Shown: positions 1 to 63,249, counted from the stretch's first letter. The stretch is DNA of 64,000 nt from Candidatus Omnitrophota bacterium (GCA_016177405.1 JACOVG010000006.1:10064-74063); one strand, 5' to 3'. The notes: generated by a model from the sequence alone, not told the origin. A program made the numbers and translations.

Positions 1-466
1 GGACGTCGACCGGATAGAGGTGTCCTTTCCACTCGACGAGGGCGAGCATCGTGGTCTCCCGCGTGCCCTTGGCGTTGAGCACCACGGTGCCTGCGGGTAG
101 ACCCGAATAGCTCGCCAGCAGGGTGAAGGCTTCCGTCCGCTGGTCCGAGGCCCCGTATCCCCGCAGGATGATGTGAAGCGGGTGGTCGTCCACAATTGGG
201 AACCCCTCGGGGACGGACCGTACGTTCTCGCTCACCCAGGCGAGAATCCGCTCGATCTTTTCTTCAAACCCCTGCCCCGGCGAGGTGACGGACTCCGCGA
301 CACGCTGCGTCTGCCAATGGCGGCTTACGAAGTGGACGGTCTTCTCGGCGAGCGTCAACCGGTGAGAGGTGACCACAAAATTCACCCCTACCCGAGTGGT
401 CACCGGCCACAGGGCAATCCCGGCGACCCCGCAGGCCAAGGCCAGCGTGATGAGGGCCTTCTTCAT
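1..466 (-). CDS. Partial CDS (3' end beyond window): signal/TM-anchored protein with transglutaminase-like core; paralog of 27846..29048
   Basis: Minus-strand ORF open to window edge; ATG at 466 forms ATGA overlap with stop of 463..2337; N-term MKKALITLALACGVAGIALW (signal/TM); segment ILRGYGASDQRTEAFTLLASYSGL parallels VRGIGWCDQKVWTVGTFLSLTGV of the downstream paralog (Cys replaced by Ser). Confidence 0.45.
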   Translation of the reverse strand, partial: MKKALITLALACGVAGIALWPVTTRVGVNFVVTSHRLTLAEKTVHFVSRHWQTQRVAESVTSPGQGFEEKIERILAWVSENVRSVPEGFPIVDDHPLHIILRGYGASDQRTEAFTLLASYSGLPAGTVVLNAKGTRETTMLALVEWKGHLYPVDV

Positions 467-2337
467 CCGGGACATGGGGCCAGCCGAATGGAATCGAGCG
501 TTTTGAGAATCGGACGATTCTCCACCGGAGGAAACGGCAGAGGCCGCGGCCGCGGTTGAGCGAGGAAGGAGCGGACCTGTTGGGCCGCCCCCTCGGGCGT
601 CTCAAAGCGGCTTAGGGCAGGCTGAAACACCGACAGGGCCGAGGGCCTAAGGTTTAACCCGCGGTAGAGCAGCAGATGGAAGGGGACCCCTGCCAGCGCC
701 GTTTCGTACAGCGGGGTCGATGGAAAATCAAGAATGACGCGGTTGGCCCAGGGAAGCCACAGCGGGAAGGGAGATCGGGAAACGATCAGATGTTTTTTTC
801 CCGACCGGGCCACCCATTGGGCCGCCGAGCTCTCCGCGGGATCCTGCGAAGGAAAAAGCTTGATGATAAAGAGATAATCCGGAATTCCCGCGAAGGTCTC
901 GAGGAGAGTTTTTTGGAGCCGGCCATACCAGGTGGGGCTGTAATCGGCCCGGTGCAGGCGGTAGAAGTCCGGCTCCGGCTTATGGAGCGGGTAAACCACC
1001 ACGGGCCGCTCGTCCGGGAGCCTTAGCCGATTTCCCCAGCGCTGAAGATGCCATCCCGGCTGCCGGGCTAAGCGGGCGTACCGTTTCCACCGGTCGGTTC
1101 CCACGTGGATTTTCGCGCAGGGCCGTTTGGCCGAAAGAGCGCGCTCCTTGAAGTAGCCGGCGAATTCTCCGTTCGGGACAAAGTAGTGCTGGCTCCGAAA
1201 GAGCTCGGTCAAGTCCCAGCTGGGCGCCTCCTCCGGGCCGTCCCCATCGGCGATGTGCACCGACTGGGTTTTTTCGGAAGATGCGCAGGCCGCCACGGCC
1301 GGAAATTGAAGGCCTTGAGCGATGGCTGGGGTGATGACAAAATCAATTTTCCATGCGTCGTAGAATTGTCGGAGGGAAGAGGTTTTCTGGGTCACCTTCG
1401 GCAGGAGGTCCCCCGCCCATCCGGCGAGGAGAGGAGACAGCCAAGGCCTCACGGATACGCCAAACCAGCTTTGGGGCCGATCCCAGACGGGGCTGTCGGC
1501 GGCCGAAAGCTCCTGCGCGGCGCGCAGCCAGCGAGAGGATGAATCGGACTTCCTCGGAAGGGCGTCGGACCAAAGGGTTCTCCCGCCCTCGGATAAATCC
1601 AAGATCCGATCCCCGCTGGCCAGGAAGCACCGGTGTCCGGCCTCGAGGGCCTCTTTGAGGAGGTCCTTGAGGTAATGGTCCGATTCCAGGAAAAGGAGCG
1701 TCAACCGCTCGCCTGACCTGGAAGGTGATAAGGCTCCCTGGATTTTCCAGAGTCCCCGCTTGAGGGCTCTCCGGAACGGCTGGCCGGCCGCGGCGCGGCC
1801 AACGGCAGGCCGTGACCCCGCCCCGTCTGCAGAGGAGATTAGCCTCTCCATGGGCAGGCCCTCTTTCTCGCAGAGGGTGCTTGCCCACCAGGCATAAAGA
1901 CCGGGGGCCGACGCGCAGAGGTTTTCGAACGGCTCATCCCAAGCGGCGGTTCGATCCGCCCGGGGGCAGAAGACAACGTCCTTGCGCTCCTCCTTCAGGA
2001 GTTGGTGGATCTCCAGACCGCGGGCATAGAGATTGTCGAGCAAGGTCTTCCAGCAGTAGCCAAAGAGCAAGGCCGGACGAAGGCGCAGCTCATCCAGCTC
2101 CGGAAGGCGCCGGATGAGCCCCTCGTCCAATTCGTCCAGCCATTCCAATTGCCTGCTCCAAAGGGAGGACTCTTCACGACGGAGCGCTTCTTCGACGCCG
2201 TAGTCCCAGGTAATCCGGTGGGGCACCCCCTGGGCCTCCAGGGCCCGCTGGGCGCTGGTGGAGAGAGCCACCGCGGTATCCCCCGAAGAGAGGTTCAGGT
2301 TTCCGGGTACTCCCTCCAGAAGGAAGAGCCGCTTCAT
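463..2337 (-). CDS. Hypothetical protein (624 aa), likely polysaccharide-biosynthesis associated; no motif recognised
   Basis: Long uninterrupted minus-strand ORF, co-directional and stop/start-coupled with neighbours (ATGA at 463-466); no recognisable catalytic motif by eye. Confidence 0.5.
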   Translation of the reverse strand: MKRLFLLEGVPGNLNLSSGDTAVALSTSAQRALEAQGVPHRITWDYGVEEALRREESSLWSRQLEWLDELDEGLIRRLPELDELRLRPALLFGYCWKTLLDNLYARGLEIHQLLKEERKDVVFCPRADRTAAWDEPFENLCASAPGLYAWWASTLCEKEGLPMERLISSADGAGSRPAVGRAAAGQPFRRALKRGLWKIQGALSPSRSGERLTLLFLESDHYLKDLLKEALEAGHRCFLASGDRILDLSEGGRTLWSDALPRKSDSSSRWLRAAQELSAADSPVWDRPQSWFGVSVRPWLSPLLAGWAGDLLPKVTQKTSSLRQFYDAWKIDFVITPAIAQGLQFPAVAACASSEKTQSVHIADGDGPEEAPSWDLTELFRSQHYFVPNGEFAGYFKERALSAKRPCAKIHVGTDRWKRYARLARQPGWHLQRWGNRLRLPDERPVVVYPLHKPEPDFYRLHRADYSPTWYGRLQKTLLETFAGIPDYLFIIKLFPSQDPAESSAAQWVARSGKKHLIVSRSPFPLWLPWANRVILDFPSTPLYETALAGVPFHLLLYRGLNLRPSALSVFQPALSRFETPEGAAQQVRSFLAQPRPRPLPFPPVENRPILKTLDSIRLAPCPG

Positions 2338-2900
2338 TCTGGACCCGGGGGGAAGCGCTTAAGGAATTCCTCCCGAAGCAGGCCGTACTCCAAGAGGTCA
2401 AGGTAGCTGTTCTGCTTGAAAAGGGCCTGCCGGCGCCGGCCCTCCTCCCGCATCCCGAGATGGGCCGCGAGCCCGCGCATGGGCATATTGCTCGCCGATG
2501 TCCCGCAATGGATCCGATGCAGGTTGAGCGATCTGAATCCGTGGTCCAGCAGGAGCCGGGCCGCTTCCTTGGAGTAGCCCTTGCCCCAGCAGTCCTTCTC
2601 ACCGATCAGAATGGCGAATTCCGCCAGGCGGTTCACCCAGTCGATGTTCTGCAGGGAGATGTTTCCGATGTGGCGCCCGCCGTCCGTCAGCGTGACCGCC
2701 AGCACCAGGTCGTTGGGCGAGGCCAGCATCTTTTTGACGTACCTGACCGCATCCTCCGGACGGTACGGAAAGAGGTGGTGGCCGTTGTGCCGGCAGACCT
2801 CCGGGTCGTTGAGCCAATTCAGATAGGCCCCGTCGCAGTCCGCCTCCGTCAAGGACCGCAGGAGAACCCGCTTAGTTTGCAGGAACGGCGGCGGCGTCAT
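2334..2900 (-). CDS. GNAT-family N-acetyltransferase (RimJ/RimL-like)
   Basis: ORF 2334..3041 trimmed to internal ATG at 2900 (MTPPPFLQTKRVLLRSLTEADCD...); GNAT-like core VLAVTLTDGGRHIGNISLQNIDWVNRLAEFAILIGEKDCWGKGYSKEAARLLLDHGF; upstream extension would overlap amidase gene. Confidence 0.7.
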   Translation of the reverse strand: MTPPPFLQTKRVLLRSLTEADCDGAYLNWLNDPEVCRHNGHHLFPYRPEDAVRYVKKMLASPNDLVLAVTLTDGGRHIGNISLQNIDWVNRLAEFAILIGEKDCWGKGYSKEAARLLLDHGFRSLNLHRIHCGTSASNMPMRGLAAHLGMREEGRRRQALFKQNSYLDLLEYGLLREEFLKRFPPGPE

Positions 2901-4302
2901 GGGGGACTCGTGCGGGGTTGGAGAGGATCCCTTTGGGAAACGGATTCGGGGCCGGCGGCAGGCAGCCCGCTTGAGCCAAGGCCCGGACAAACCGAAAAAG
3001 GTCCAGGTCGTTGTAGCGCCGGCAAACCACCTGGGCGCCAAAGGGAAGACCGTGGGGGCCCGTGAAAACCGGCAGGCTCATTGCCGGAACGCCTCCCAGC
3101 GTCCAGATCAAGCAACTGTCCGGGCGGTCAGGGGCGGCCAGTCCGGGAAGGGGCTCCCCGCCCGTGGAGAGGGTCAGCAGCATGTCCCACCCGGAAAGAA
3201 ACCATTGGTCCAGCGCCCCGGCCAGCTCCTCCTGCCGCTGGAGCGCGCCGAGATATTTCTCCAGGCCGATCCCTCGGCCCTCGGCAATCATGGCTTTCAG
3301 GATGGGGCTGACCAGGGCCTCCTGAAGGGCTTCTTCCTTAAAGTAGTAGGCGAGGGTTCTGCAGTAGATGATTTCATGAAGGGCGTGAGCCTCCTCAAGG
3401 CCGGGCGGCCAAGGGGCTTCGTGGAGCTCCACGCCCGGCAAGGTCGAAAGCCGCTCGCTGAAGCGGAGCAGGGCGTCCTGGGCGTAAGGCTCGGCATCAT
3501 TCCACTTGGGGCCCCGCACCCATCCCACCCGCCAGGGGCGATCGGCCCTCCGATGACGGGAGCGGTCGGTCATGAACCGATGCACCAAGGGGTGGTCCGG
3601 GCCCCTGACCCGCGTGGTTTCCAGAAGAAGCTCAAGATCCTCGACGGATCTGGCCATGAAGGCGATGGTGTCCAGCGAATCGGTGGTTTTGAGGGATCCG
3701 GTTCTTGGGATGAGTCCGAAAGAGGGTTTGTAGCCATAAATCCCGCAATAGCTGGCGGGCCGTATGGTTGAGCCGGCCGTTTGAGAAGCCAGGGCCAACG
3801 GGACCATGAAGGCGGCCACCGCCGCGGCGGAACCGCTGGAGGAGGTTCCTGGGCTGTAGTCCGGATGGTGGGGATTCACCGTTGGACCGGGAGCGTGCAC
3901 CGCGAACTCGGCGGTGACGGTCTTCCCCGGCAGGACAGCCCCTGCCTGGCGAAGGTTAAAAACCACCCGGGCATCGTTGCCAGGCGTGTAACCGGCGTAG
4001 ATGGGGCTGCCCATGGTGGTGGGCATGTCCTGCGTGTTGAAGATGTCCTTGATCCCCACCGGAATGCCGGCCAGGGGGCCAGGGTCCTTCCCCTGGCGCA
4101 GGGCTTCATCGACGGCTCTCGCTTGAGCCAGGGCCAGAGAGGGATCGAGGTAAGCCCAGGCCTTAAGGGAGGGTTCCAGGCGCTCTATCTGCGTCAGGCA
4201 AGCCCGGGTGAGGGCCTCCGAGGTCAAGGCCCCTTCTCGGATGCGCCGCAGCGCCTGGGTGGCGGTGAGCCGCTGGAGCGGGGTTTCTTCCGCGGGGCTC
4301 AT
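2872..4302 (-). CDS. Amidase-signature (AS) family enzyme, GatA-like amidase/glutaminase
   Basis: 476 aa; AS signature GGSSSGSAAAVAA (here GTSSSGSAAAVAAF) and Ser-cisSer-Lys context (GIKDIF...K); ATG at 4302 overlaps stop of upstream gene (ATGA). Confidence 0.8.
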   Translation of the reverse strand: MSPAEETPLQRLTATQALRRIREGALTSEALTRACLTQIERLEPSLKAWAYLDPSLALAQARAVDEALRQGKDPGPLAGIPVGIKDIFNTQDMPTTMGSPIYAGYTPGNDARVVFNLRQAGAVLPGKTVTAEFAVHAPGPTVNPHHPDYSPGTSSSGSAAAVAAFMVPLALASQTAGSTIRPASYCGIYGYKPSFGLIPRTGSLKTTDSLDTIAFMARSVEDLELLLETTRVRGPDHPLVHRFMTDRSRHRRADRPWRVGWVRGPKWNDAEPYAQDALLRFSERLSTLPGVELHEAPWPPGLEEAHALHEIIYCRTLAYYFKEEALQEALVSPILKAMIAEGRGIGLEKYLGALQRQEELAGALDQWFLSGWDMLLTLSTGGEPLPGLAAPDRPDSCLIWTLGGVPAMSLPVFTGPHGLPFGAQVVCRRYNDLDLFRFVRALAQAGCLPPAPNPFPKGILSNPARVPHDAAAVPAN

Positions 4303-5516
4303 GCCGAAGGTCTTCCTCCGGTTTCCTCTTTGGCCTTGCCCTCAAGAAACTTCACGATCGCCGGTTTTACCTCAAGTTCGGTCTGCGCAGGACGCGGCGC
4401 CTCCCGCGCGGGATAATCGCTTGGCAGATCGAGGGCCTTTCCCTCCCGCTTGGCCTTGAGGGTCTCAATGAATTCACGCTCGGTCATCCCGGTGATCTTC
4501 AGGTAATAATCCAGCGCGGCGGGCCGCTTGGAATCCTCCTCCCGGGCCAGCGCGAAGCCCTCTTCCCGGGTGAGCAGCCCAGCTCGGACGTCCGCGCTGG
4601 CGTGGTCGGTTCCCCGCCCGAAGCCGCGCTTGATGAATTTGGCGTAGTCGTGAACGCCGGCCATGACGCACTCGACGCTCTTGTAGCCCTTGTAGGTGCC
4701 TTCCACATGGTCCTCCCGCCAGCCGTAGGTCTTCTTCACGAACTCCATCTGGCGCTCCTCATCCCAGAAAATAAAATTGCTCAAGTGAATCCCCACGACA
4801 CCGGAACGCTCAATCTCCTCGCGCGAGGGGAGCTGGAAGAGGCTCATGTCCCGGAGAGAGATTTGGTCATCCGCCATCGCCGGCGGTTCGAACCGGGCCG
4901 AGTACTTCACAAAGTAATCGCGGTCGTATTGGGTGACTTGAGCGCGGTAGTCTCCCCTTCCGTCCCCTTCGGAGACGCTGTCGCCCCAGACCAGGAGCCG
5001 CACCCCGAACTTGACGGCCACCTGAAGGGGAAAGGCCCCCACCCCCATGTGGCAGTGCCAACAGGCGTCGCCGATCGCCCCCAGGGATTTCCGGGCCAGT
5101 TGATTGACAAGCCGGCGGTTGGGGGTGAACATGATGTGATCCACATCGAATTTCTCCAAGGCGTTGTAGAGGTTGTAAAGCCCGGTCTCCGTGTACCAGT
5201 TGTGATTGAAGGTGACCGCCAGGGGCTTGAGCCCATAAACGCGGGTCAGCACATGGAGCTGGAAGGTGCTGTCCTTCCCGCCGCTGATGGGCACCATGCA
5301 GTCGTAGTTTTGGCCGGTCTTATCCCGATACTTCTCAAAGAGCTGGCGCAGCGTCTTCTCCCGGCTGGCCCAGTCGATCCGCATCTTCTCCTCCTGGGCC
5401 CGGCAGGCGGTGCAGATGCCCATCTCATCGAAGGCGACCCCCTCGAGCGTTTCGGGCAAGCAGCAGCGCGTGCAGTATTTCAGAATGCCGGAGTAGGGTG
5501 GACCAGTTTCAGCCAA
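4299..5516 (-). CDS. N-acetyl sugar amidotransferase (PP-loop ATP pyrophosphatase; WbpG/WbuX/PseA family)
   Basis: PP-loop motif VPISGGKDST; N-terminal zinc-ribbon-like KYCTRCCLPETLEGVAFDEMGICTACR typical of this family; probable TTG start at 5516 with GGAGGG SD 8 nt upstream (ORF track start 5576 would overlap DegT by 68 nt). Confidence 0.8.
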   Translation of the reverse strand: MAETGPPYSGILKYCTRCCLPETLEGVAFDEMGICTACRAQEEKMRIDWASREKTLRQLFEKYRDKTGQNYDCMVPISGGKDSTFQLHVLTRVYGLKPLAVTFNHNWYTETGLYNLYNALEKFDVDHIMFTPNRRLVNQLARKSLGAIGDACWHCHMGVGAFPLQVAVKFGVRLLVWGDSVSEGDGRGDYRAQVTQYDRDYFVKYSARFEPPAMADDQISLRDMSLFQLPSREEIERSGVVGIHLSNFIFWDEERQMEFVKKTYGWREDHVEGTYKGYKSVECVMAGVHDYAKFIKRGFGRGTDHASADVRAGLLTREEGFALAREEDSKRPAALDYYLKITGMTEREFIETLKAKREGKALDLPSDYPAREAPRPAQTELEVKPAIVKFLEGKAKEETGGRPSA

Positions 5517-6843
5517 GGGGCGGCCCTCCGACGGTCTTTGCCACTTTTTCGATCGCCCGCGCGATGTCCAGAACATCCTCCAGGAGATGGGGAGGCCTGA
5601 CCCATTCGCTCACCAGCATCTGGTGCTCGTAAAGCTTCTCGGCGTTGGGACAGGTGCCGGGCGCGTAGGTGGCGCGGCTGCCCAGGTTCTCCGGGGCGCT
5701 GAAGGGGTAGCCGTGCTTGAAGAGCCGTTTGGTTTGGTAGATCGGCTGCAGGTAGAGAGGACGGGTGTACCCCTGCGTGAAGGGAACGCCCTCGGCCCGA
5801 AGGGCCTGGGCGAATTCTTCGCGGCTTATCCCGCACCGTTCCGGCAGGAACCGCAGGGGGTACAGGTAATAGGCGCTCTCGCAGTCCTCGCAGCCTGACT
5901 CACCGAACGCCCGGTGAGGACAGCAAGGCGGCGGCACCAGAAACGGTATCCGGGAAAGCCGCTGGCTTAGGGCCTTAACGTACCCCTGACGAACGGCATT
6001 GAATTTCTTGAGCTTCTTCAACTGCTCAAGGCCGATGGCCGCCGTCAGCTCCGTGGGCCGAAGATTGAAACCCAGCAGGTTGGTGCCGTCGGCGCAGCCC
6101 GCCTCTTCCATCACCGCCTCGGCGTGGTTTCGAATGAGCGCCAGGCGCTTCCTCAAGCCCTCATCGCCGGTGACGCACAGGCCCCCCTCCCCGGCTTGAA
6201 TGGTCTTGTTGACGTTGAGGCTGAAAACGCCAATGTCCCCGAAGGTCCCCACCGGCTTACCCCGGTATTTGGCTCCGTGGGCCTGGGCGCAGTCCTCGAT
6301 GATTTTCAGACCGCGGCCGCGGGCCAACTGGAGGATGGGATCCATGTCGGCCGGTATCCCGAATTGATGAACCACCACGATCGCGCGCGTCCGATCCGTC
6401 AGACGGGCCCGGATCGACCCGGGGTCGAGAGAGCCCGACTCAAGTTTGACGTCGGCGAAAACTGGAATGGCTCCGTACACCAGGGGGCAGGAAGCCGCCG
6501 CCGACATCGTGTAGGGGGAAACGATGACCTCGTCGCCGTATCCCAGCCCCAGGGCGCCGATCGCCGCGATGAGGCCTGAAGTGGCGCTGTTCATGCCGAC
6601 GGCGTACCGGATTCCATAAGCCTCGCACCAGGCGCGCTCCAGGGCCTGCACCCTGGGGCCGCCCCAGAAGCTGAAAGGCGGTTCCGGAGCATGGGAACCT
6701 TCGAAGAAGGAAAGGACTCCTCGCTCCATGGCCTCCCGCACGGCCCGCTTCTCCTCTTCCCCCAGGGTGAGGTTTTCCATCCAGGGCCGGGTTCGGACCG
6801 GCGGCCCGCCATGGATGGCCAAGGTGTCAGGATCGGGCCGCAT
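5509..6843 (-). CDS. DegT/DnrJ/EryC1/StrS-family PLP-dependent sugar aminotransferase
   Basis: 444 aa; family core AVGMNSATSGL...VIVSPYTMSAAAS...FSLNVNKTIQAGEGG (PLP-Lys); alternative ATG at 6780 (MENLTLGEEEKR) also possible. Confidence 0.8.
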   Translation of the reverse strand: MRPDPDTLAIHGGPPVRTRPWMENLTLGEEEKRAVREAMERGVLSFFEGSHAPEPPFSFWGGPRVQALERAWCEAYGIRYAVGMNSATSGLIAAIGALGLGYGDEVIVSPYTMSAAASCPLVYGAIPVFADVKLESGSLDPGSIRARLTDRTRAIVVVHQFGIPADMDPILQLARGRGLKIIEDCAQAHGAKYRGKPVGTFGDIGVFSLNVNKTIQAGEGGLCVTGDEGLRKRLALIRNHAEAVMEEAGCADGTNLLGFNLRPTELTAAIGLEQLKKLKKFNAVRQGYVKALSQRLSRIPFLVPPPCCPHRAFGESGCEDCESAYYLYPLRFLPERCGISREEFAQALRAEGVPFTQGYTRPLYLQPIYQTKRLFKHGYPFSAPENLGSRATYAPGTCPNAEKLYEHQMLVSEWVRPPHLLEDVLDIARAIEKVAKTVGGPPLG

Positions 6844-7840
6844 GGGACAATTCCTTTGCCGAAGCCAGCGCCCTGGCCCTCCACATCAGCCGCATGGTTT
6901 CCCGCACTGCGGTGAGGCCCACCCCCTCCGGGTCTCCCTGGGGCGTCTTTCCCGCGAGGCAGGCGTCGATCCGGTCGAGGGCATGCGCCAAAGGCCTCTG
7001 AAGCGCCTGAAAGGGAGAGCCCTCCGCGGGGACCAAGATCCGTTCTCCCCAATCGTTGACGGCCGTCTCCCAGACGGCGATGGCCTGGCCAAAGTTGAGA
7101 AGCTGGACCCGCCCCCTCTGGAAACGGAGATCGCACTCGAACATCTGGTAGAGCCGCTCATCGAACGTCCTGAAGCTCACCGGCGCGCCTTCCCACCGAA
7201 GCGTGAGGTGCAGGTTGTCATCCCCCGCGCGCCCGCCGGGGGCCGTGGAAACGTTCGCGATCTTGGGTTCTCCCGGAAGGAGCAGCCGGAGGGTGTGCAC
7301 CAGGTGGACACCGCTGTTCATCCATCCCCCGTAGGTGGTGGAGATCCCTTCCACCAAAGGGCCCAAAACACCGGATCGGATCCGGCGAGCCAGTTTCTGA
7401 TAGGCCGGATCAAAACGCCGGGGATGATGGACCAGGATACGGGTTCGGCCGGTCCGTTCCAGGTCCAAGAGCCGATCCAGATCCGCCTCGTCAAGACAAA
7501 CCGGCTTCTCCATAAAGAGAACCCGCGGAGGATTCTGGGCCAGGAGAATCTGCTTGGCCTGGTCGAAATGGAGCTCGCTGGGGCTGCACAGGCTGATGAC
7601 GTCCACCCGCTCCTTCTCTAGAAAGGCGTTCAGCGAAGCGAACCGGCCCGGGACACGCCATCGTTTGCCCAGGGCCTCCCGCCGGCTGGCCTTGGGATCC
7701 ACCACCGCCGTCAGCTTGAAGGCCGGGTGCTGGTGGTAAGCCTGGGCGTGTGTCTGGACCGGCCCGCGGCTGCGGGGCTCGTCCAGAAGGCCCGCAATTC
7801 TTCCGCAGCCCACCAGGGCTGCCGTCCAATCAGGCTTCAT
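6827..7840 (-). CDS. Gfo/Idh/MocA-family NAD(P)-dependent oxidoreductase (WbpB-like sugar dehydrogenase candidate)
   Basis: ORF 6827..8140 trimmed to ATG at 7840 (MKPDWTAALVGCGRIAGL Rossmann motif); the 100-aa N-terminal extension in the ORF track overlaps the upstream gene and is not credible. Confidence 0.75.
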   Translation of the reverse strand: MKPDWTAALVGCGRIAGLLDEPRSRGPVQTHAQAYHQHPAFKLTAVVDPKASRREALGKRWRVPGRFASLNAFLEKERVDVISLCSPSELHFDQAKQILLAQNPPRVLFMEKPVCLDEADLDRLLDLERTGRTRILVHHPRRFDPAYQKLARRIRSGVLGPLVEGISTTYGGWMNSGVHLVHTLRLLLPGEPKIANVSTAPGGRAGDDNLHLTLRWEGAPVSFRTFDERLYQMFECDLRFQRGRVQLLNFGQAIAVWETAVNDWGERILVPAEGSPFQALQRPLAHALDRIDACLAGKTPQGDPEGVGLTAVRETMRLMWRARALASAKELSHAARS

Positions 7841-8585
7841 TTCGCAGCGCTTTCCACCGCCTGGGAACGGTTTGGTTTCGACGGGCCAGCTCCGGGTGGT
7901 CGAGCAAGAAGTCGATGATTTCACCCAACCCGAATCCGGGCCGCCTCGGATAAAAATGCTCGTACACGGCGGAGACCACCTCAAAATCTTCCTCGGTGTC
8001 CACCTCCAGGTGAAACTTCGGCTGCCGGTGCCAGGGCGGAGCTTCCAGGTTGCACAGCCTGAACCGGTCCGGGTATTGTGTGATGTTCCAGCCGGCATGG
8101 GACCGGCGATCCGCGTCGGCCACAAGCCGTTCGGTCTCAAGCAAGACCCTGGCCGGATAAACGAAGACCTCCATCCCCGGCGGATAGGTGGTCGTCAGGC
8201 CATTGGTCACGTAGTCGTAGCGGTCCAGATTCTTCAGGGCGAATCCCGTCACCGCGTCCACCAAGAGAGGGTCGGGCATGGGGTTGTCCCCCATGAACTC
8301 GACATGGAGATCCACCGAGAAGGCCTTGAGCGCTCCGGCCACCCGGCCCAAAACATCCTCCTCGCTGCCCCGGAAACAGGGAATGCTCAAGCGCGAGGCA
8401 AGCTGCGCCAGGGGATCGTCCCCGGCCTCGGTGGAAGTGGCCAAGATCACCTCGTCAATCAGCCGGCTGCGCCGGATCCTCTCGATCTGGAGCTCCAGCA
8501 TCGGCATCCCAAGGATGGGGCGCAGGACCTTGCCCGGCAGCCTGGAAGATCCCATCCGGGCCTGGACGGTGGCCGAGATCCTCAC
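7830..8585 (-). CDS. Cytidylyltransferase, SpsF/acylneuraminate cytidylyltransferase-like (GT-A nucleotidyltransferase fold)
   Basis: N-term ISATVQARMGSSRLPGKVLRPILGMPML is the classic CMP-sugar synthetase (SpsF/NeuA/KdsB) phosphate-binding signature; 251 aa. Confidence 0.65.
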   Translation of the reverse strand: MRISATVQARMGSSRLPGKVLRPILGMPMLELQIERIRRSRLIDEVILATSTEAGDDPLAQLASRLSIPCFRGSEEDVLGRVAGALKAFSVDLHVEFMGDNPMPDPLLVDAVTGFALKNLDRYDYVTNGLTTTYPPGMEVFVYPARVLLETERLVADADRRSHAGWNITQYPDRFRLCNLEAPPWHRQPKFHLEVDTEEDFEVVSAVYEHFYPRRPGFGLGEIIDFLLDHPELARRNQTVPRRWKALRNEA

Positions 8586-9745
8586 CTGGGCGCTCCTTCA
8601 GGTGCCGGAAGAAGATTGAGCAGCTCCTGGACAATGCGCGAAGCGGCTCCCTGCGCCTGCCTGAAGAGCTTGCCAGCTTGAGCCGGCGCGGGCCCCGGCG
8701 GGCCCCACCAGGCGCCCAGATGCCGGACCAGCGCTTTCCGTTCCGTGACCGTCGGGACCAGCCCAAGATCCGTTCCAATGAAGGGACCCGCCTGGCATCC
8801 CCCGGGTTGAAAGCTGACCGACCGTTTGCCCGCCAGGGCTGCCTCCAGCAAAAGCAGAGAGGTCATCCCCAGGACGCCGTCGCTGGCAAGGATGGACGGC
8901 CACGGAGGCTGATTGGCCATGGGCCAGAGCCGCCCCTGCGACCTCCAGCGCCGGGCCAGCGGTCCGCACGGAAACTCCCCCTGCGCCTGGGGGTGCAGCT
9001 TCACGATCAGACGGGCCTTCAACCCTTGCGCGGATTCGACTTCGTCAAGAGCGGACAAGGTCTCCTCCAACACCTGGTCTTCGGTGTAACCCCTGAAATA
9101 AGGGGCTCCAGGCGCAAAATCGGAGTTGAACGATTCCGCCGCGAAGAGAAAGAAACGTTCGTTGGCGGATGCCCCGGCCCTTGAGAGCCACCCTTGCTTG
9201 AGAGAGCGCGCGTCAGCGAGGAGGGACGGCTCCGCCAGTCCTTGAACGAGCGTTTCCAGGTAGGGGTGCCCGGTAACGACCAAAATCTCCTCCGGCAGCC
9301 CTTCCCGAATGGCCTGGGCCTTGGCCGTCTCATCAGGGAGAGCGATCCGCGCGGGGTAAACTGGAACTCCCGAGGGCGCGGCGGCCCAACGCTCCTTGTA
9401 ATAGCACCAATGATCCACGACAGCCAAAGCGGGAAGGCGGGTATGCCGCAGCAGGATCTTGTCGATGCTCTGACCCCAGGCGGTTCCCAAAAGAAGGAGA
9501 TCCGGACGAATGTCCGCGACCTCTCTCATGATGGCCTCGGTCAAGCCGTTCGGCGGCTCCTGCGCCTGGGGGACCACCCTATGCGTGAGCGCGGCCCTTT
9601 CAAACAGGCCCACCGCCTGGGCGCAGGCCAAAGAATGAACCTGGGCGGACGCTTCTTCCTGAAGCGCCCGGATCACGGGGATGAGAACGTTCGCTCCGCC
9701 GGCGTCCTGGGCCGCCGCTAAAACCACCGGACGTCTGTCAGGCAT
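8582..9745 (-). CDS. Hypothetical protein, possibly GT-B-like (PseG/TagF-like) sugar-processing enzyme
   Basis: 387 aa; N-terminal Gly-rich VVLAAAQDAGGANVLIPV and C-terminal RLIVKLHPQAQGE (K-x-HP reminiscent of TagF-family); assignment tentative. Confidence 0.4.
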   Translation of the reverse strand: MPDRRPVVLAAAQDAGGANVLIPVIRALQEEASAQVHSLACAQAVGLFERAALTHRVVPQAQEPPNGLTEAIMREVADIRPDLLLLGTAWGQSIDKILLRHTRLPALAVVDHWCYYKERWAAAPSGVPVYPARIALPDETAKAQAIREGLPEEILVVTGHPYLETLVQGLAEPSLLADARSLKQGWLSRAGASANERFFLFAAESFNSDFAPGAPYFRGYTEDQVLEETLSALDEVESAQGLKARLIVKLHPQAQGEFPCGPLARRWRSQGRLWPMANQPPWPSILASDGVLGMTSLLLLEAALAGKRSVSFQPGGCQAGPFIGTDLGLVPTVTERKALVRHLGAWWGPPGPAPAQAGKLFRQAQGAASRIVQELLNLLPAPEGAPR

Positions 9746-14108: not shown

Positions 14109-14953
14109 CCCGCCGCCTCCACGGGCTTCACCCCCGCAAGCATCCATCCCCGGTCGTAGGCCACGCGGATCTGCCCCAGACCGGCCTGCCCCATCAGCCG
14201 GATGGCGCCCTCGCGGCTGAAGCGATGCTCCAGCGGGGCCGAAAAACGGTCGTAAAGATCACCCACCAAGCTTAAGGGTCCTTGGCCGTGCCGGTAAGGC
14301 AGCCGCTTGACCCAGGAAGAGAGGACCCGAACGTCTTTGGCGAGGCGGTACGGCAAGGTGAAGGTAAGCCACGCCAGGGGAGAGCCCAGGACGCAAAGCC
14401 CGTAGAGCAGGCCCGGCGGGAGCCTGCGCGTGATCCCTCTGGTGAGCCGGGTCAGCTTCAATCCCAGACGCCAGCTTACGCTCCGGTCGCTCATGTCCTC
14501 GTAAAGATAAATGGCGAGGGCGGCACCCGGCTTGGCCAGGTGAACCAGCTCCTGAAGCCCCCCCAAGGGAGAAGCCATGTGGTGGAGCACCCCATAGGAG
14601 TAGATGAAATCAAAACAACCCGGCCCGAAGGGAAGCCGCTGGATGTCGGCTTGAAGGATCCGGGCATTGGAAAGGGATCGCGTCCTGGCGAAGCTGGCCT
14701 GGGACCCGCCCGGGCTTAGCTCCACTCCCACCAGTTGAGCCTGGGGGTGGCGCACGGCCTGGAGATAAAGGTCGATTCCGTTTCCGCAGCCGGCGTCCAG
14801 AACCAAACCCTTCAAAGGGGCGAGGTGAAGGCCTTCCCGCATCCGGTCAAAGTGGTAAGCCGGGGGGAGAGTTCCCTGACGCCTTTGGGAAGCCGACCAG
14901 AGATACCCGTAGCGGCTGGAGGTCTCCGATTCCACGCTCGCAAGACTAGGCAT
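14105..14953 (-). CDS. Class I SAM-dependent methyltransferase
   Basis: ATG at 14953; motif I LVLDAGCGNGIDL, acidic motif II, VLHHMASP (methyltransf_11/12-like). Confidence 0.7.
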   Translation of the reverse strand: MPSLASVESETSSRYGYLWSASQRRQGTLPPAYHFDRMREGLHLAPLKGLVLDAGCGNGIDLYLQAVRHPQAQLVGVELSPGGSQASFARTRSLSNARILQADIQRLPFGPGCFDFIYSYGVLHHMASPLGGLQELVHLAKPGAALAIYLYEDMSDRSVSWRLGLKLTRLTRGITRRLPPGLLYGLCVLGSPLAWLTFTLPYRLAKDVRVLSSWVKRLPYRHGQGPLSLVGDLYDRFSAPLEHRFSREGAIRLMGQAGLGQIRVAYDRGWMLAGVKPVEAAG

Positions 14954-15959
14954 GAACCTTCCCAGCCCCCAGCTTTTCCAGCTCCATGGCCCGGTAGGAG
15001 CAGCGGTCGCAGGCCTGAAGCTTGTGGGCCTGCCCCTCGGCATGAAGCCGCCGGTACCGAGAGGCCTCTTCCGAAAGCCACATCGACCGTATCGATTGGG
15101 CCCCGGCCCTTCCGAGGGCCAAGAGAGAGAAGTCTGAAACGCCGTGCATCAGGCACGGCAGGGCGGTGCCGTCCCACAGGATGGTCATCCTCTGCCACAG
15201 GAAGGGACAGGCCCAGTCCGCGACGAGCCCCCGGTGATCGTCCTCCGGCCCCTCCCGGCGGTGGTCGAGATAGGCGATTTCATCGGCCGTGGCTTCCCAA
15301 AAATTCACGTACTCGGAAAACCGCTCCCGGAGCTCTGCGAGCATCACGGACTGCACCCTGATCTGCGGGATTCCCAGGCCCCGCTCATCCCGGAGGCGCC
15401 GCAGGGTCTGGACATTCGCCACCACCCGCTCAAATTGGGCCCCCACCCGATAAGCCTCGTAGGATTCCTTGGAGGTCCCCTCGAAAGAGATGGAAATCCG
15501 ATCCAGTCCGGCATCGATCAGCCGGTGGATCAGGGCCCCCGTCAAGAGGGTCGCGTTGGTGTTGAAATAAACGTCCAGAATCCCCTTCTGCTTGGCGTAC
15601 GCCACCATCTCCGGAAGTTTCGGGTGCAGGGTGGGCTCCCCCCGGAAGCTAAGCTTGATGGAAAAAAGCCCTTCCGCCGCACCTTCATCGATGATCCGGG
15701 TAAAGAGCTCCCACTTCAGATATCCCGGAACCTCCGGGCCCCAATTCTTCATGGTGGTGGCGCAGAAGGGGCAGCGCAGGTTGCACACGCCGGTTGATTC
15801 GATGTCCAGGTGAATCGGGAACTCCCCCACGGTGAAGCGCTCCGGAAACTGGGCCCAGCGCCTGCGGTACTCCTGAAAGCGCGGATCTTTCAGCCGCGCG
15901 TCAAAAACGCTGGATTTCCCCACCGTGTGGAAATTGGGGTTGGCTCGGGCTCCGCTCAT
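14946..15959 (-). CDS. Radical SAM enzyme with C-terminal SPASM domain
   Basis: CNLRCPFC (CxxxCxxC) radical SAM cluster; C-terminal Cys-rich CPFLWQRMTILWDGTALPC...CDRCSY consistent with SPASM auxiliary cluster domain. Confidence 0.8.
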   Translation of the reverse strand: MSGARANPNFHTVGKSSVFDARLKDPRFQEYRRRWAQFPERFTVGEFPIHLDIESTGVCNLRCPFCATTMKNWGPEVPGYLKWELFTRIIDEGAAEGLFSIKLSFRGEPTLHPKLPEMVAYAKQKGILDVYFNTNATLLTGALIHRLIDAGLDRISISFEGTSKESYEAYRVGAQFERVVANVQTLRRLRDERGLGIPQIRVQSVMLAELRERFSEYVNFWEATADEIAYLDHRREGPEDDHRGLVADWACPFLWQRMTILWDGTALPCLMHGVSDFSLLALGRAGAQSIRSMWLSEEASRYRRLHAEGQAHKLQACDRCSYRAMELEKLGAGKVHA

Positions 15960-16540
15960 CTCTTTTTGATCACCCGCGCCTGAAACTCGATCTCGTCAAA
16001 CCCGCCCACCCAGTAGCACCAGATCCGCTGGGTCCACCGAACGTTGAGGTTCGCCAGGCCGTCGATCGCGCGCGAGATCGCTTTGCGCAGCCAGGTGGTT
16101 TGCGCCCTCGGGCGCATCCAGTGCAGCCGCACCCTCTCCACCTGGAAATGGCAGCGGCCATAGCGCTCCGAATGGCCGGGGTCGAAATGGTCGAAAAGAC
16201 CCACCCCCACGGCCCGCTTGTGACCCGGGTGGGTCCAGTTGCAGGAGTAGTGGGGCACGCGTATCTCCAACCGGGCCCCGTGCGCGCAAATCCGGTACAG
16301 CTCTTGGATCACCCCGATCGTGTCTTCCAAGTGTTCCAGGCAATGATCCATCACCACCTCCCGGACCGATCCCTCCTCGAAAGGCCACGGAAAAAGATCC
16401 AGGTCGTGGACGACGTCCGGCGTGGGACCATTTCCGTTGTTGTCCACGTTGAGGAAACCGGCGATCCGGCGGCCGCCTGAACCGATGTTCAGCCTCAAGA
16501 GAACCCTTTCAGGGGTTTGGACGAAACCCGCGTCAGACAT
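15956..16540 (-). CDS. Class I SAM-dependent methyltransferase (Methyltransf_11-like)
   Basis: RVLLRLNIGSGG motif I; ATG at 16540 lies 5 nt after upstream stop (ORF-track GTG 16564 would overlap upstream gene). Confidence 0.65.
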   Translation of the reverse strand: MSDAGFVQTPERVLLRLNIGSGGRRIAGFLNVDNNGNGPTPDVVHDLDLFPWPFEEGSVREVVMDHCLEHLEDTIGVIQELYRICAHGARLEIRVPHYSCNWTHPGHKRAVGVGLFDHFDPGHSERYGRCHFQVERVRLHWMRPRAQTTWLRKAISRAIDGLANLNVRWTQRIWCYWVGGFDEIEFQARVIKKR

Positions 16541-18092
16541 CGATTGGGTCGAGGACTCCAACACCCAAGTACTCCTCTCTGAATTTCACCTGCAGATTCT
16601 TGTACTGCGCGTCTCCGGCCTCACTCATCTGTTCCGCGAGGCGGATCTGCGGATGGACGGGTTCTGGCATCGTGACGTAAAAGCTGAAGGTGCGCTCCAA
16701 GCCCAGGATCTCCTCCCGGGAGAGCTGGGGCATGTTCAGCGTGCTTGCGTCAGGGTTATCCAATGAGCAGATGGTGCCGGGGTCGAGGTACCCTTCCCGG
16801 ATGGCCAGCTCTCTTAACGGCGTTCCGTGGAAGGGGGCGAAGATGAAGGCGCCGGAGCATTCCACCCCCTTGGGCAGCTGGCGGTTGAATTCGATCGTGT
16901 CGAAGATCAGATCCCGCGTCTCCAGGGGCATCCCGATGATGCTGTTTCCGTTGGCGGCGTATTTCCGGCCGGCCACCGCCCGGAAGGCCTCCAGCATTCG
17001 CTCGTTGGAGAGTTTCCTTTTCAGAACCTTCTCCCGGTACTCGGGGTTCCCATGCTCGATGCCCATGCTCATCCTAAGGCAATTCATCCGTTCGAGCCAC
17101 CCGGCTCTTTCTTCGGTGATGGTCTCGCAGCGGGTGTTCATCCAGAAGGGGATCTTAAAATCCAGGTACATGTTGGCCAGCTCCAGAAACTCCCCGTCCC
17201 CCATGGCGAGAAAGGTGTCCACCACGAAGTAGATGAGCTCCGGCTGATACTTTTCCTTGAGGAACTTAAGCTCCGCGTGCACGCGGTCCATCCGCTTCTT
17301 CCGGTAGAACCGCCCGCCCTTGTCGTTGGCGTAGGCCAAGTTGTTGGAGGGGGAGTTGCAATAGGCGCAGGTGTAGGGGCAGCCCCTCTGGGTTTCCATG
17401 CCGACCGTGCGCCAGATCTTGCCCATCATGGGCCGGTAAATGCTCTGGGGATCGAACAGATCGAAATCCGGGTAGGGAAGGCTGTTCAGATCCAGCGTCT
17501 GGCGCATCGGATTCTGGTAAATCTGGCCATCCTGTTTCACCCAGAGGTTAGGGGTGTCCTTGACCGGCAGCCCGCGGCAGAGTCTAAGGCACAAGTCCAG
17601 CAGGGCCTCCTCCCCTTCCCCGCGGCAGACGTAGTCGACCGCCTCTTCCCGGACGATCTTGTCCGGCGCGTAGGTGGCGAAGACCCCGCCGAAGAGAACG
17701 GGCGGACGCCCCTTCAGCGACTGGACCAGCCGGAGGCCGACGGTGTAGGTGTTCTCCACCACCGAGACCGCGATGAGATTCGGCTGGAATTCATCCACCT
17801 TTTTCTGAAAGTCCAAGAACATATCGGTCTCCACGGGGCGGATGCCCCTCTCCTCCCAGCGGAAGGGGCGCAGGGCCGAGTGGAAGTACGGGTAGTTGGC
17901 GCCGAAGGGATTCTTGTAAAAGGTGCAGTCAAAGAGGTCCACGGTGAACCCTTCCTGCTTGAGGACCGCGGACAACAGTCCCAGACCGGTGGGCATTAGG
18001 GCGCGCATCTCGATGTTCGGGTAAAGGAACAAAACCCGGAAATCCTTGGGGTTTCTTCCGTTGCCCATCGGTGTGGTGTTGAGTGAAATCAT
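16533..18092 (-). CDS. Cobalamin (B12)-binding domain radical SAM enzyme (class B), probable C-/unactivated-position methyltransferase
   Basis: N-terminal B12-binding-like VLFLYPNIEMRALMPTGLGLLSAVLKQEGFTVDLFD...; radical SAM CPYTCAYC; ATG 18092 with GGGAGAAGG SD. Confidence 0.8.
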   Translation of the reverse strand: MISLNTTPMGNGRNPKDFRVLFLYPNIEMRALMPTGLGLLSAVLKQEGFTVDLFDCTFYKNPFGANYPYFHSALRPFRWEERGIRPVETDMFLDFQKKVDEFQPNLIAVSVVENTYTVGLRLVQSLKGRPPVLFGGVFATYAPDKIVREEAVDYVCRGEGEEALLDLCLRLCRGLPVKDTPNLWVKQDGQIYQNPMRQTLDLNSLPYPDFDLFDPQSIYRPMMGKIWRTVGMETQRGCPYTCAYCNSPSNNLAYANDKGGRFYRKKRMDRVHAELKFLKEKYQPELIYFVVDTFLAMGDGEFLELANMYLDFKIPFWMNTRCETITEERAGWLERMNCLRMSMGIEHGNPEYREKVLKRKLSNERMLEAFRAVAGRKYAANGNSIIGMPLETRDLIFDTIEFNRQLPKGVECSGAFIFAPFHGTPLRELAIREGYLDPGTICSLDNPDASTLNMPQLSREEILGLERTFSFYVTMPEPVHPQIRLAEQMSEAGDAQYKNLQVKFREEYLGVGVLDPIDV

Positions 18093-22921: not shown

Positions 22922-23749
22922 TCAGCCAAGGACCGATTCCGTTTTTGGGAATCTGGAGCGGACAAAGTCCCGTATCTTGAGCTCGCCGGCCGTGGGAAGC
23001 TTCCTGGTTTCACCCAAAAGCTCCTCCACGCGGCGGATCTGTTCCACCATGGTCCGGAACTCCTCAGGGGTGGCGGAAAGAACGTGATCGGTCCCGGGAA
23101 GGGATTTGTCCAGGGTGAAGTGTTTTTCAATCACCCGCGCCCCCAGGGCGGCCGCCGCCACGGGAGCCACCACGCCCACCGTATGGTCCGAGTAGCCGAT
23201 CACCCGGTCCGGGAAGGCTTCCTGCAGCGCCGTGATGGAGCGCAGGTTGGCTTCGGAGTCGCCAAGAGGATACTGGGTGACACAGTGCAAAATGACGACC
23301 TCATCCACCTCGTCCAGCCACCCCAAGGCCTGGCCAATCTCCTCGAGGGTGGCCATCCCGGTTGAAAGATAGACGGTGTCGGCGTGCCGATTCACGTACG
23401 CGAGGAGTGGGCGGTTGAGCATCTCGCTGGAGGCGATCTTGATGGCGCGCAAACCCAGTTTCTCGCAAAGGAACCGGGCTCTCTCGACGGTGAAGGGGGA
23501 GCTCAAGAAGCCAACGCCCTGCTGGACGGCAAGACCCTTAAGCTCCCGATGGAGATCGTCGGAAAGCTCCACCCGGGTGAACCACTCCCGCTCCGGATCC
23601 TTCTCGGAGACGTCCCTTCCCCGATAAGACTGGAATTTCACCACATCGGCCCCTGCCTGGGCCGCCAAGACCACCATCCGGCGGGCCAGATCCCAGTCGC
23701 CGCCATGGTTCTCCCCGATCTCCGCGATGATGAGAGCCGGCTTAGACAT
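22922..23749 (-). CDS. NeuB-family nonulosonic acid (sialic/legionaminic/pseudaminic) synthase, short form without C-terminal SAF domain
   Basis: MSKPALIIAEIGENHGGDWDLARRMVVLAAQAGADVVKFQSY is the canonical NeuB/PseI/LegI N-terminus; only 275 aa, TIM-barrel domain only. Confidence 0.8.
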   Translation of the reverse strand: MSKPALIIAEIGENHGGDWDLARRMVVLAAQAGADVVKFQSYRGRDVSEKDPEREWFTRVELSDDLHRELKGLAVQQGVGFLSSPFTVERARFLCEKLGLRAIKIASSEMLNRPLLAYVNRHADTVYLSTGMATLEEIGQALGWLDEVDEVVILHCVTQYPLGDSEANLRSITALQEAFPDRVIGYSDHTVGVVAPVAAAALGARVIEKHFTLDKSLPGTDHVLSATPEEFRTMVEQIRRVEELLGETRKLPTAGELKIRDFVRSRFPKTESVLG

Positions 23750-24458
23750 GGAGCTGCCCTGCTCGGACCGGAAGGCGGCCGAAACGTTCCAGGATTTCTT
23801 GAGGCCAGAGCCGTCTTAGCTCTTCCCACCCGTCGCTCACCCGCTGGGGGTCTTGGGACATGCTTCCCTCGCGGATGGAATAGGTGAAGAGGGGCCTGGC
23901 GATGTGGCGAGGGGGCTTGGAGCTCCTCAAGAGGTACCGAAGGTACAGATCGTATTCTTCCCAGAAGAGCTCCCGGTACCCCCCGATCTCAAGGAGGAGC
24001 GAGCGGCGCATCATCGAACCAATGGCGATCAGCCGGTAGAGGTCGAATTCACGCAGGCGCACCGTCTCGACCTTTGAGGTGCTCCCCGCACGCTCAAACC
24101 GGTCACAGGTCACCAGGTCGGCCGCGCCCTGGTCCAGGAAGGGACACATGGCTTCCAGGATGATCGGTTCGAAGGTGTCGTCGGCATCCAGCCGGATCAC
24201 GTAGGCCCCCCGCGCCAGGGCTAACCCGCGGTTGCAGGTTTTAGGCAGGCCCAGGTTGGCTTCACTTCTCACGTATCGGAAATTGGGATAGCGGGTGAAT
24301 TCCTTCGCCGCCTGCTCCGTACCATCGGTGGAACCGTCATCGAGAAAGAGCACCTCGTATTGGTCCAGGGGCAGGGTCTGCCGGTAGAGGCTTCCGCAGG
24401 CGGATTCGAGGGTGGCCGCGCCGTTGTAACAGCTTAGGATCACGCTGACGCGCTTCAT
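23742..24458 (-). CDS. Glycosyltransferase family 2
   Basis: MKRVSVILSCYNGAATL...LFLDDGSTDGT...LDADD motifs. Confidence 0.8.
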   Translation of the reverse strand: MKRVSVILSCYNGAATLESACGSLYRQTLPLDQYEVLFLDDGSTDGTEQAAKEFTRYPNFRYVRSEANLGLPKTCNRGLALARGAYVIRLDADDTFEPIILEAMCPFLDQGAADLVTCDRFERAGSTSKVETVRLREFDLYRLIAIGSMMRRSLLLEIGGYRELFWEEYDLYLRYLLRSSKPPRHIARPLFTYSIREGSMSQDPQRVSDGWEELRRLWPQEILERFGRLPVRAGQLHV

Positions 24459-63211: not shown

Positions 63212-63249
63212 TTTTTTCGGCTCCCAGGTGATAACGTTCTTCCGGAAAC

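Follow-up and report, generated by a model that had tools for sequence, protein, structure and literature searches.

A candidate ammonia supplier of the amidase-signature fold for a distinct clade of WbuX-family sugar amidotransferases

The window analyzed here, meaning the whole stretch of 64,000 nucleotides (nt) from Candidatus Omnitrophota bacterium (GCA_016177405.1 JACOVG010000006.1:10064-74063), harbors a tightly packed operon in which the gene of a WbuX-family PP-loop N-acetyl-sugar amidotransferase is directly followed by that of an amidase-signature (AS) amidase. These genes lie on the minus strand, as does every other large open reading frame (ORF) of the window with a family match, and the order of transcription is a 387-residue protein, CTP_transf_3, Gfo/Idh/MocA, DegT, WbuX, amidase, GNAT and a 624-residue protein. 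The genes and residues of the WbuX-amidase pair are as follows:

4299-5516, minus strand: WbuX-family PP-loop N-acetyl-sugar amidotransferase (TIGR03573, 340.5 bits; 405 residues in an independent gene call)
5403-5474, minus strand: tetracysteine CxxC...CxxC zinc ribbon of the WbuX family, translated as CTRCCLPETLEGVAFDEMGICTAC
5268-5285, minus strand: PP-loop SGGKDS, predicted to bind ATP (from translation; invariant in 59 fusion proteins)
4299-4302, minus strand: ATGA in which the WbuX stop and the amidase start overlap, with GGAGGA ~11 nt upstream
2872-4302, minus strand: AS amidase of 476 residues, proposed ammonia-generating partner (PF01425, 259.5 bits)
4048-4050, minus strand: predicted catalytic Lys85 (invariant in the family alignment; aligns with malonamidase E2 Lys62)
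3841-3843, minus strand: cis-Ser S154 (invariant in the family alignment; aligns with malonamidase E2 Ser131)
3808-3849, minus strand: AS signature, translated as GTSSSGSAAAVAAF
3769-3771, minus strand: predicted nucleophile Ser178 (invariant; aligns with malonamidase E2 Ser155)
3760-3762, minus strand: Arg181 (invariant; aligns with malonamidase E2 Arg158)

The ORF of WbuX extends over 4299-5576, with its likely start at a TTG (5516) that has a GGAGG 8 nt upstream. Both the TIGR03573 score, which at 340.5 bits lies well above the cutoff of 203.2, and the presence of SGGKDS make the assignment to the WbuX family firm, in agreement with the initial annotation of this protein as a PP-loop N-acetyl-sugar amidotransferase; its sole solved relative in the PDB is LpNASAT of Legionella (8wex, E 9e-40). 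The PP-loop SGGxDS and the tetracysteine zinc motifs were defined in a structural paper on the WbuX family, the only one of its kind, from which it is also clear that the reaction requires ammonia, with no discussion of the ammonia source (PMC10607449). Going by its family and by the DegT and GNAT genes conserved alongside it, the WbuX of the window would convert the N-acetyl group of a sugar into an acetamidino group. Acetamidino sugars, found in O-antigens, flagellin glycans and nonulosonic acids, bring positive charge to the surface glycans of bacteria and archaea. The coupling of the genes was also as first described, with the ATGA overlap between the PP-loop enzyme and the amidase present in the sequence at 4299-4302 and an overlap of 29 nt between the amidase and GNAT genes; in addition, the DegT stop and the WbuX start overlap by 8 nt. 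When genes were called independently on public contigs from this organism, the WbuX, amidase and GNAT proteins came out at 405, 476 and 188 residues, as in the window.

The role of HisH/HisF as the ammonia supplier of WbuX is assumed from gene neighborhood, and we know of no enzymological study of the ammonia step of WbuX. The absence of HisH/HisF neighbors from this locus, as claimed initially, was borne out in the operon, in the window and in ~6.5 kilobases (kb) outside its left edge, as evidenced by: 1) no GATase or His_biosynth Pfam domain among the large minus-strand ORFs of the 64-kb window; 2) no match in the window by tblastn with 13 HisH/HisF/HisA/WbuZ queries, comprising E. coli HisH, HisF and HisA together with ten WbuY/WbuZ-type proteins from plasmid loci; 3) no HisH/HisF found by tblastn in the ~6.5 kb past the left edge, a region encoding a 237-residue protein, an epimerase, a Glycos_transf_4 initiating transferase, a Wzy_C protein and a GT4 glycosyltransferase. 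HisH/HisF-like genes immediately outside the window had been named at the outset as a result that would speak against the proposal, and none turned up in this stretch. Given that WbuX needs ammonia and that the operon holds no other candidate source, the amidase is favored as the supplier. Two ORFs at 24455-25914 which have the right sizes for HisH/HisF proved to be a PIG-L deacetylase and a formyltransferase, and a 425-residue ORF at 50080-51357, considered as a second WbuX, had no tblastn match to WbuX.

A scan with one genome per species yielded 549 relatives of the amidase, of which the best 80 loci (43-61% identity) were kept. A WbuX orthologue (49-69% identity) adjoins the amidase on the same strand in 78 of these 80 loci, being upstream in 76 and downstream in 2, and in the two loci without an adjacent WbuX the contig ends at the amidase. 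Together the loci span ~17 phylum-level groups of Bacteria and Archaea, with carriers among Planctomycetota, Verrucomicrobiota, Chloroflexota, Acidobacteriota, several classes of Pseudomonadota (including the cultured Massilia and Pseudoduganella and a Methylosinus plasmid), Ignavibacteria/Bacteroidota, Campylobacterota, Desulfobacterota, Nitrospirota, Gemmatimonadota, Melainabacteria, Synergistota, Bdellovibrionota, Patescibacteria, Omnitrophota and three archaeal metagenome-assembled genomes. Most related loci retain the GNAT gene, and the positions of GNAT and DegT vary from locus to locus while the WbuX-amidase pair stays unseparated. With 78 of 80 unrelated genomes showing it, the adjacency of WbuX and amidase is far beyond chance, and the co-occurrence of the two in other genomes, put forward at the outset as a check on the pairing, is seen to be conserved across many phyla and often in fused form. 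We also examined 77 junctions, namely that of the window and those of the 76 loci in which WbuX lies upstream, taking the in-frame start nearest to the WbuX stop, a choice that favors short distances; on this basis, there were 41 overlaps, 31 gaps of 0-50 nt, 4 fusions and 1 ambiguous case, with an overlap of 4 nt being the commonest (24 junctions, i.e. that of the window and 23 other loci).

In four loci (Dehalococcoidia, Chloroflexia and two Desulfarculia), WbuX, a linker of ~50 residues and the amidase form a single uninterrupted ORF of ~870 residues. A protein database search with one of these fusions returned ~61 clusters of full-length fusions with 797-922 residues and 38-91% identity, as well as 8 further clusters of ~1120-1180 residues with the arrangement WbuX-WbuX-amidase; the database name of the WbuX-amidase fusions is 'N-acetyl sugar amidotransferase'. 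The fusions were encountered repeatedly in assemblies independent of one another, and also in a cultured isolate, Solidesulfovibrio alcoholivorans, whose fusion protein P0257 scored 315 bits with TIGR03573 and 230 bits with PF01425. Among 59 aligned fusions, no variation was seen in the PP-loop, the amidase triad, the arginine or any of the four zinc-binding cysteines, suggesting that both activities have been retained. The AlphaFold2 model of P0257 had a mean predicted local distance difference test (pLDDT) of 88.6 and a predicted TM-score (pTM) of 0.84, with low confidence confined to linker residues 388-395; a pTM this high, in a protein with two similarly large domains, implies that the model places them in a defined orientation to each other. 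No PDB chain spans both domains of the fusion (query-normalized TM-score at most 0.46).

Variations on this architecture were also noticed. Some WbuX proteins of the clade (P0122, P0207, P0270, P0271, P0278, P0290; L097, L098) carry a second, partial WbuX-like domain at the N-terminus, for a length of ~610-650 residues, and some of the WbuX-doubled proteins occur in the triple form WbuX-WbuX-amidase (~1120-1180 residues). The tails of many lone WbuX proteins (L021, L028-L037, L041-L044) harbor a motif, ...LPxxxKxxxNxERILPFxxQLIE..., which is present as well in the fusion linkers of L030, L042 and L046 and might be a tether that touches the amidase; as a clade-specific docking tail of WbuX, this motif is not universal and is not clear in the WbuX of the window. 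Finally, divergent fusions (P0311; L090 and L091, from TARA marine contigs) possess an amidase domain that is only 31% identical to the window amidase and matches the GatA model more strongly over its full length (200 bits); these P0311-type fusions may have split off early from the rest of the fusion family, or an AS amidase may have been recruited independently a second time.

WbuX and amidase also co-evolve. Among 53 loci holding WbuX, amidase, DegT and GNAT, the distances of WbuX and amidase were correlated with r = 0.86 (Spearman 0.76), compared with r = 0.48 (Spearman 0.12) for WbuX and DegT, r = 0.34 (0.09) for WbuX and GNAT and r = 0.45 for amidase and DegT. In a neighbor-joining tree, the 70 full-length amidase-linked WbuX proteins were monophyletic, with distances of at most 0.53 among themselves and of at least 0.63 to any HisH/HisF-linked homologue. 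Plasmid-borne WbuX homologues with 27-36% identity have HisH and HisF/WbuZ adjacent in 5 of 6 cases and the amidase in none. A metagenome scan anchored on one of the plasmid homologues gave 80 WbuX loci of a HisH/HisF-type clade; the amidase was present in none of the 80, and HisH and HisF adjoined WbuX in 32 of the 39 loci with at least 1.6 kb on both sides. Conversely, 77 of the 80 amidase loci contain no HisH/HisF. In the three that do, and in L088, L090 and L098, each HisH/HisF pair is neighbored by a further WbuX copy, a divergent paralogue of 26-39% identity, with the close WbuX orthologue of the same six loci sitting with the amidase; in L014, for example, the three WbuX genes are matched by two HisH/HisF pairs and a single amidase. 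We regard this one-to-one match of WbuX and supplier within a locus as the strongest argument that the amidase would do the job of HisH/HisF.

As to the amidase itself, it matched the PF01425 hidden Markov model and carries both a GGSS(G/S)GS-type signature and the Lys/cis-Ser/Ser triad. The protein is identical to an NCBI entry from a metagenome-assembled genome, 'amidase [Candidatus Omnitrophica bacterium]', and the relatives listed share 54-67% identity with it, with Lys85, Ser154, Ser178 and Arg181 being invariant. Database labels for these amidases are the generic 'amidase' or 'GatA family', and no NCBIfam model reached its cutoff with the window amidase (GatA TIGR00132, 193.3 vs. 481.1; AtzE, 198 vs. 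461). By sequence, the best PDB match was malonamidase E2 (192 bits, residues 70-434, near full length), followed by GatA (135 bits, mainly in the N-terminal half); further matches included acylamidases, urethanases and ClbL (89 bits). The same ranking was found with the amidase domain of the fusion model, for which the target-normalized TM-score was 0.87-0.88 with malonamidase E2 vs. 0.78-0.80 with GatA. The window amidase and malonamidase E2 have in common an S-x-I-R-P-A motif, in which the arginine lies 3 residues past the nucleophile serine; Arg158 of malonamidase E2, the equivalent of Arg181, binds the substrate carboxylate. Based on this invariant arginine, the amidase looks like a hydrolase of a small carboxy-amide that would release ammonia, for which glutamine, asparagine, 2-oxoglutaramate or another amide are candidate donors. 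The closest characterized relatives, i.e. malonamidase E2, GatA and AtzE, all free ammonia from primary amides. Of the initial description of this protein as a GatA-like enzyme, membership in the AS family (PF01425, 259.5 bits) has held and the likeness to GatA has given way to that to malonamidase E2 (192 vs. 135 bits). Kinship with a substrate-specific amidase had been named at the outset as an outcome that would count against ammonia delivery, and malonamidase E2 is, to the letter, such an enzyme; since it also frees ammonia from a primary amide, this kinship does not refute ammonia delivery.

The genes around the pair, from which the remainder of the pathway can be surmised, are listed below in order of transcription:

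8582-9745, minus strand: 387-residue protein without a family match (family scan)
7830-8585, minus strand: CTP_transf_3 cytidylyltransferase of the conserved module (PF02348, 79 bits; kept in many related loci)
6827-7840 (start approximate), minus strand: Gfo/Idh/MocA oxidoreductase of the conserved module (PF01408; 337 residues in an independent gene call)
5509-6843, minus strand: DegT/PseC-like sugar aminotransferase of the conserved module (PF01041, 264.6 bits)
2334-2900 (ATG at 2900), minus strand: GNAT (Acetyltransf_3) N-acetyltransferase of 188 residues (PF13302, 98 bits; gene call)
463-2337, minus strand: 624-residue protein without a Pfam, NCBIfam or PDB match, overlapping the preceding GNAT gene by 4 nt (ATGA)

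A conserved and often fused pair with a distribution complementary to that of HisH/HisF is the pattern expected when one supplier has been replaced by an unrelated one. From these comparisons of sequences, we consider it likely that a distinct WbuX clade has the AS amidase as its dedicated source of ammonia, in place of the HisH/HisF-like WbuY/WbuZ. The sequences themselves show the domain identities, intact catalytic motifs, gene overlap, conserved adjacency, fusions, co-evolution and complementarity with HisH/HisF; that ammonia is released and channelled, from which amide, onto which sugar and in which order of reactions is what we infer in the following scheme. Oxidation by the Gfo/Idh/MocA enzyme and transamination by DegT would place an amino group onto a sugar which is probably nucleotide-activated, and GNAT would acetylate this amino group. 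WbuX, by means of its PP-loop and ATP, would then activate the acetamido carbonyl, while the Lys85/Ser154/Ser178 triad of the amidase would free ammonia from a small primary amide, with the attack of this ammonia giving rise to the acetamidino group. We surmise that WbuX and amidase probably form a 1:1 complex and that, being one polypeptide in many organisms, they may allow direct passage of ammonia between the active sites. The proposed steps parallel those of the Pseudomonas aeruginosa O5 pathway, which comprises WbpB, WbpE, WbpD and WbpG with HisH2/HisF2, and acetylation directly before amidination would fit with the GNAT-WbuX fusions that also occur. Searches of the PDB with the 387-residue protein, the cytidylyltransferase and the oxidoreductase did not reveal the sugar substrate; the cytidylyltransferase, together with a NeuB gene in the window, hints at a CMP-activated ulosonic acid. 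In a bolder version of this proposal, which we deem improbable, the pair and the fusions would constitute an unrecognized ammonia-channelling class that combines the AS fold with a PP-loop enzyme, perhaps with a donor other than glutamine, e.g. 2-oxoglutaramate from a glutamine-dependent DegT; if 2-oxoglutaramate were the donor, one glutamine would supply both nitrogens of the acetamidino group.

The module for ammonia delivery proposed in the initial annotation as an alternative to HisH/HisF is supported by comparative genomics (adjacency, fusions and complementary distribution); nevertheless, several observations weigh against a dedicated supplier or against glutamine as its substrate: 1) the adjacency counts are not independent phylogenetically, since common descent and the horizontal spread of the cassette raise them; 2) in 7 of the 39 well-flanked loci of the HisH/HisF-type clade, neither ammonia supplier is near WbuX, indicating that a dedicated supplier is not universal; 3) L099 and L100, with a WbuX orthologue of 70% identity in a similar locus, have no amidase, GNAT or remnants of these within 10 kb, so the amidase is not indispensable everywhere; 4) given the GNAT-WbuX fusions, fusion by itself speaks for a shared pathway and not for channelling; 5) the C-terminal half of the amidase resembles malonamidase E2, and for two of the three glutamine-binding residues of GatA a weak and indirect alignment gave no counterpart. 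With regard to the last point, glutamine is bound by Tyr309, Arg358 and Asp425 in S. aureus GatA (bioRxiv 10.1101/733030). In an alignment of the amidase domain from a related fusion with 2df4_A, which at 27 bits is weak and only indirect for the window amidase, Arg358 is opposite a lysine, Asp425 falls in a segment that is missing from the window-amidase family and from malonamidase E2 alike, and the region of Tyr309 is outside the aligned part. The mismatch suggests, within the limits of such an alignment, that the amide donor may not be glutamine. A glutaminase role, as put forward initially, is thus not established, given the closer malonamidase E2 and the lack of counterparts for Arg358 and Asp425 in this weak and indirect alignment, while the idea of ammonia supply has gained support.

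Several of these points would be accommodated if the amidase acted sequentially on the sugar, whether by removing an N-acyl group, trimming a sugar amide or hydrolyzing an amidine as a correction, with WbuX drawing on free cellular ammonia. AS enzymes cleave many secondary amides, and acylamidases and urethanases are among the PDB matches; consecutive enzymes of one pathway are fused in GNAT-WbuX, some WbuX homologues have no ammonia supplier nearby, and L099 does without the amidase. Such a role, however, leaves unexplained both the mutual exclusion of amidase and HisH/HisF according to WbuX clade and the one-to-one match of WbuX paralogues with suppliers in six loci; moreover, the amidase co-evolves far more tightly with WbuX than DegT or GNAT do, and its nearest characterized relatives use small primary amides. 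On balance, we consider this explanation unlikely, albeit less so than any of the others below. Closer to a role in ammonia supply is the idea of an omega-amidase-type helper of DegT that would hydrolyze the 2-oxoglutaramate formed by a glutamine-using DegT and so pull the transamination, with the ammonia perhaps going to WbuX. Glutamine is the donor for some DegT-family enzymes, DegT belongs to the conserved module, and the retention of Arg181 without a counterpart of Asp425 (in the weak and indirect alignment) would suit a carboxy-amide lacking an amino group. Against this, fusion, strict adjacency and co-evolution tie the amidase to WbuX and not to DegT, whose position is variable and whose distances correlate with those of the amidase with r = 0.45. 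We find a helper of DegT quite unlikely for these reasons, noting that it would overlap with the dedicated supplier we prefer if the ammonia passes to WbuX.

With ClbL, the colibactin amidase, among the PDB relatives (89 bits), the AS protein could be an acyl-transferase or ligase that works through an acyl-enzyme to attach an acyl or amino group to the sugar or to exchange one there; ClbL is, however, far less similar to it than malonamidase E2 and GatA are, and the complementarity with HisH/HisF would be left unexplained, making this a very improbable role. Least credible of all, to the point where we scarcely entertain it, is a passive hitch-hiking of the two genes in a mobile glycan cassette without a direct functional link. 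The entire module does move horizontally between phyla, for which reason the counts are non-independent, but the pair stays adjacent while the surrounding gene order shifts, both active sites are conserved, there are ~69 clusters of fusions and the distance correlation reaches r = 0.86.

The pair shares features with several known systems. One is WbuX/WbuY/WbuZ (also WbpG with HisH2/HisF2, and AglZ/HisF2), with a PP-loop/zinc-ribbon enzyme of the same family that scores above the TIGR03573 cutoff, the same need for ammonia and likewise a surface-glycan locus with oxidoreductase, aminotransferase and acetyltransferase; unlike that system, the window pair has one unrelated AS amidase instead of a HisH-like glutaminase and a HisF-like barrel, and the window-type WbuX forms a separate clade that is often fused to the amidase. 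The system of WbuX with HisH-like and HisF-like proteins is carried as such in genome annotations and appears in a transposon study of Sphingomonas (PMC11340318). With GatA of GatCAB, the window amidase shares the AS fold, the Lys/cis-Ser/Ser triad and, as we infer for the window, the provision of ammonia to a partner that activates its substrate with ATP; it differs in scoring below the TIGR00132 cutoff and in having, by synteny, the PP-loop enzyme WbuX as partner in place of GatB. No match to the GatB or GatC families was found with Pfam among the large ORFs of the window, the small ORFs not having been scanned. Malonamidase E2 of Bradyrhizobium japonicum (PDB 1o9o and 1ocl, among others), the closest solved full-length relative, shares the triad and Arg158 and frees ammonia from a small carboxy-amide; it is ~32% identical to the modelled fusion by structural alignment, and the matched PDB entries contain no partner protein. 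Lastly, GMP synthetase, asparagine synthetase B and glutamine-dependent NAD+ synthetase unite a PP-loop adenylating domain with an ammonia-generating one, following the same logic as the fusions; their glutaminases have a class I triad or are of the Ntn or nitrilase type, unlike the AS fold.

To our knowledge, the AS fold has been tied to amidotransfer solely in GatCAB thus far, and we are not aware of any description in which an AS-fold domain partners a PP-loop enzyme. We found no publication on a pairing of amidase with WbuX, acetamidino formation or a PP-loop enzyme, in a literature search with incomplete coverage, so that an earlier mention elsewhere is possible. Taken together, the sequence comparisons point to a known enzyme family in which an unrelated ammonia supplier may have replaced the usual one, and hence to a kind of amidotransferase that may not have been described. 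A second, unrelated supplier would add a new pairing to the architectures of amidotransferases; its chemistry is open to direct testing with cultured carriers, namely Solidesulfovibrio alcoholivorans, which has the fusion, and Massilia and Pseudoduganella, in which the two genes are separate. In addition, annotation of these amidases would improve, given that the labels are generic and no specific NCBIfam model is at cutoff.

Additional observations concern the neighborhood of the pair. A module made up of CTP_transf_3, Gfo/Idh/MocA, a protein of ~330-390 residues without a family match, DegT and GNAT accompanies the WbuX-amidase pair in many phyla, with the order of its genes differing (window 5509-9745; L002-L069), and resembles a portable cassette dedicated to a single modified sugar. 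Homologues of the 624-residue protein with 41-44% identity are found behind these genes elsewhere as well, L001, L095 and L099 being examples, and the 618-residue protein that occupies this position in L097 has a precomputed match to PF27859 (LIC12162). In L099 and L100 the gene order is the same, the oxidoreductase and aminotransferase are fused and a Polysacc_deac_1 deacetylase is nearby; these two loci are a natural deletion variant and could reveal what the amidase and GNAT contribute. Elsewhere in the glycan island, an AsnB-like protein of 621 residues (30975-32840) with GATase_7 and Asn_synthase domains represents a second amidotransferase, one with its own glutaminase domain, which possibly makes a sugar amide. 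The presence of two B12-binding radical SAM enzymes and one SPASM radical SAM enzyme (14946-18092 and 61691-63334), along with many SAM methyltransferases in the island, suggests an unusual C- or O-methylation of the glycan. At 22922-27960, a NeuB-family synthase lies beside a GT2 glycosyltransferase, a PIG-L deacetylase, a formyltransferase, a DegT aminotransferase and an epimerase/dehydratase, a group of genes suggestive of a route by which an N-formylated amino sugar or a nonulosonic acid would be made.

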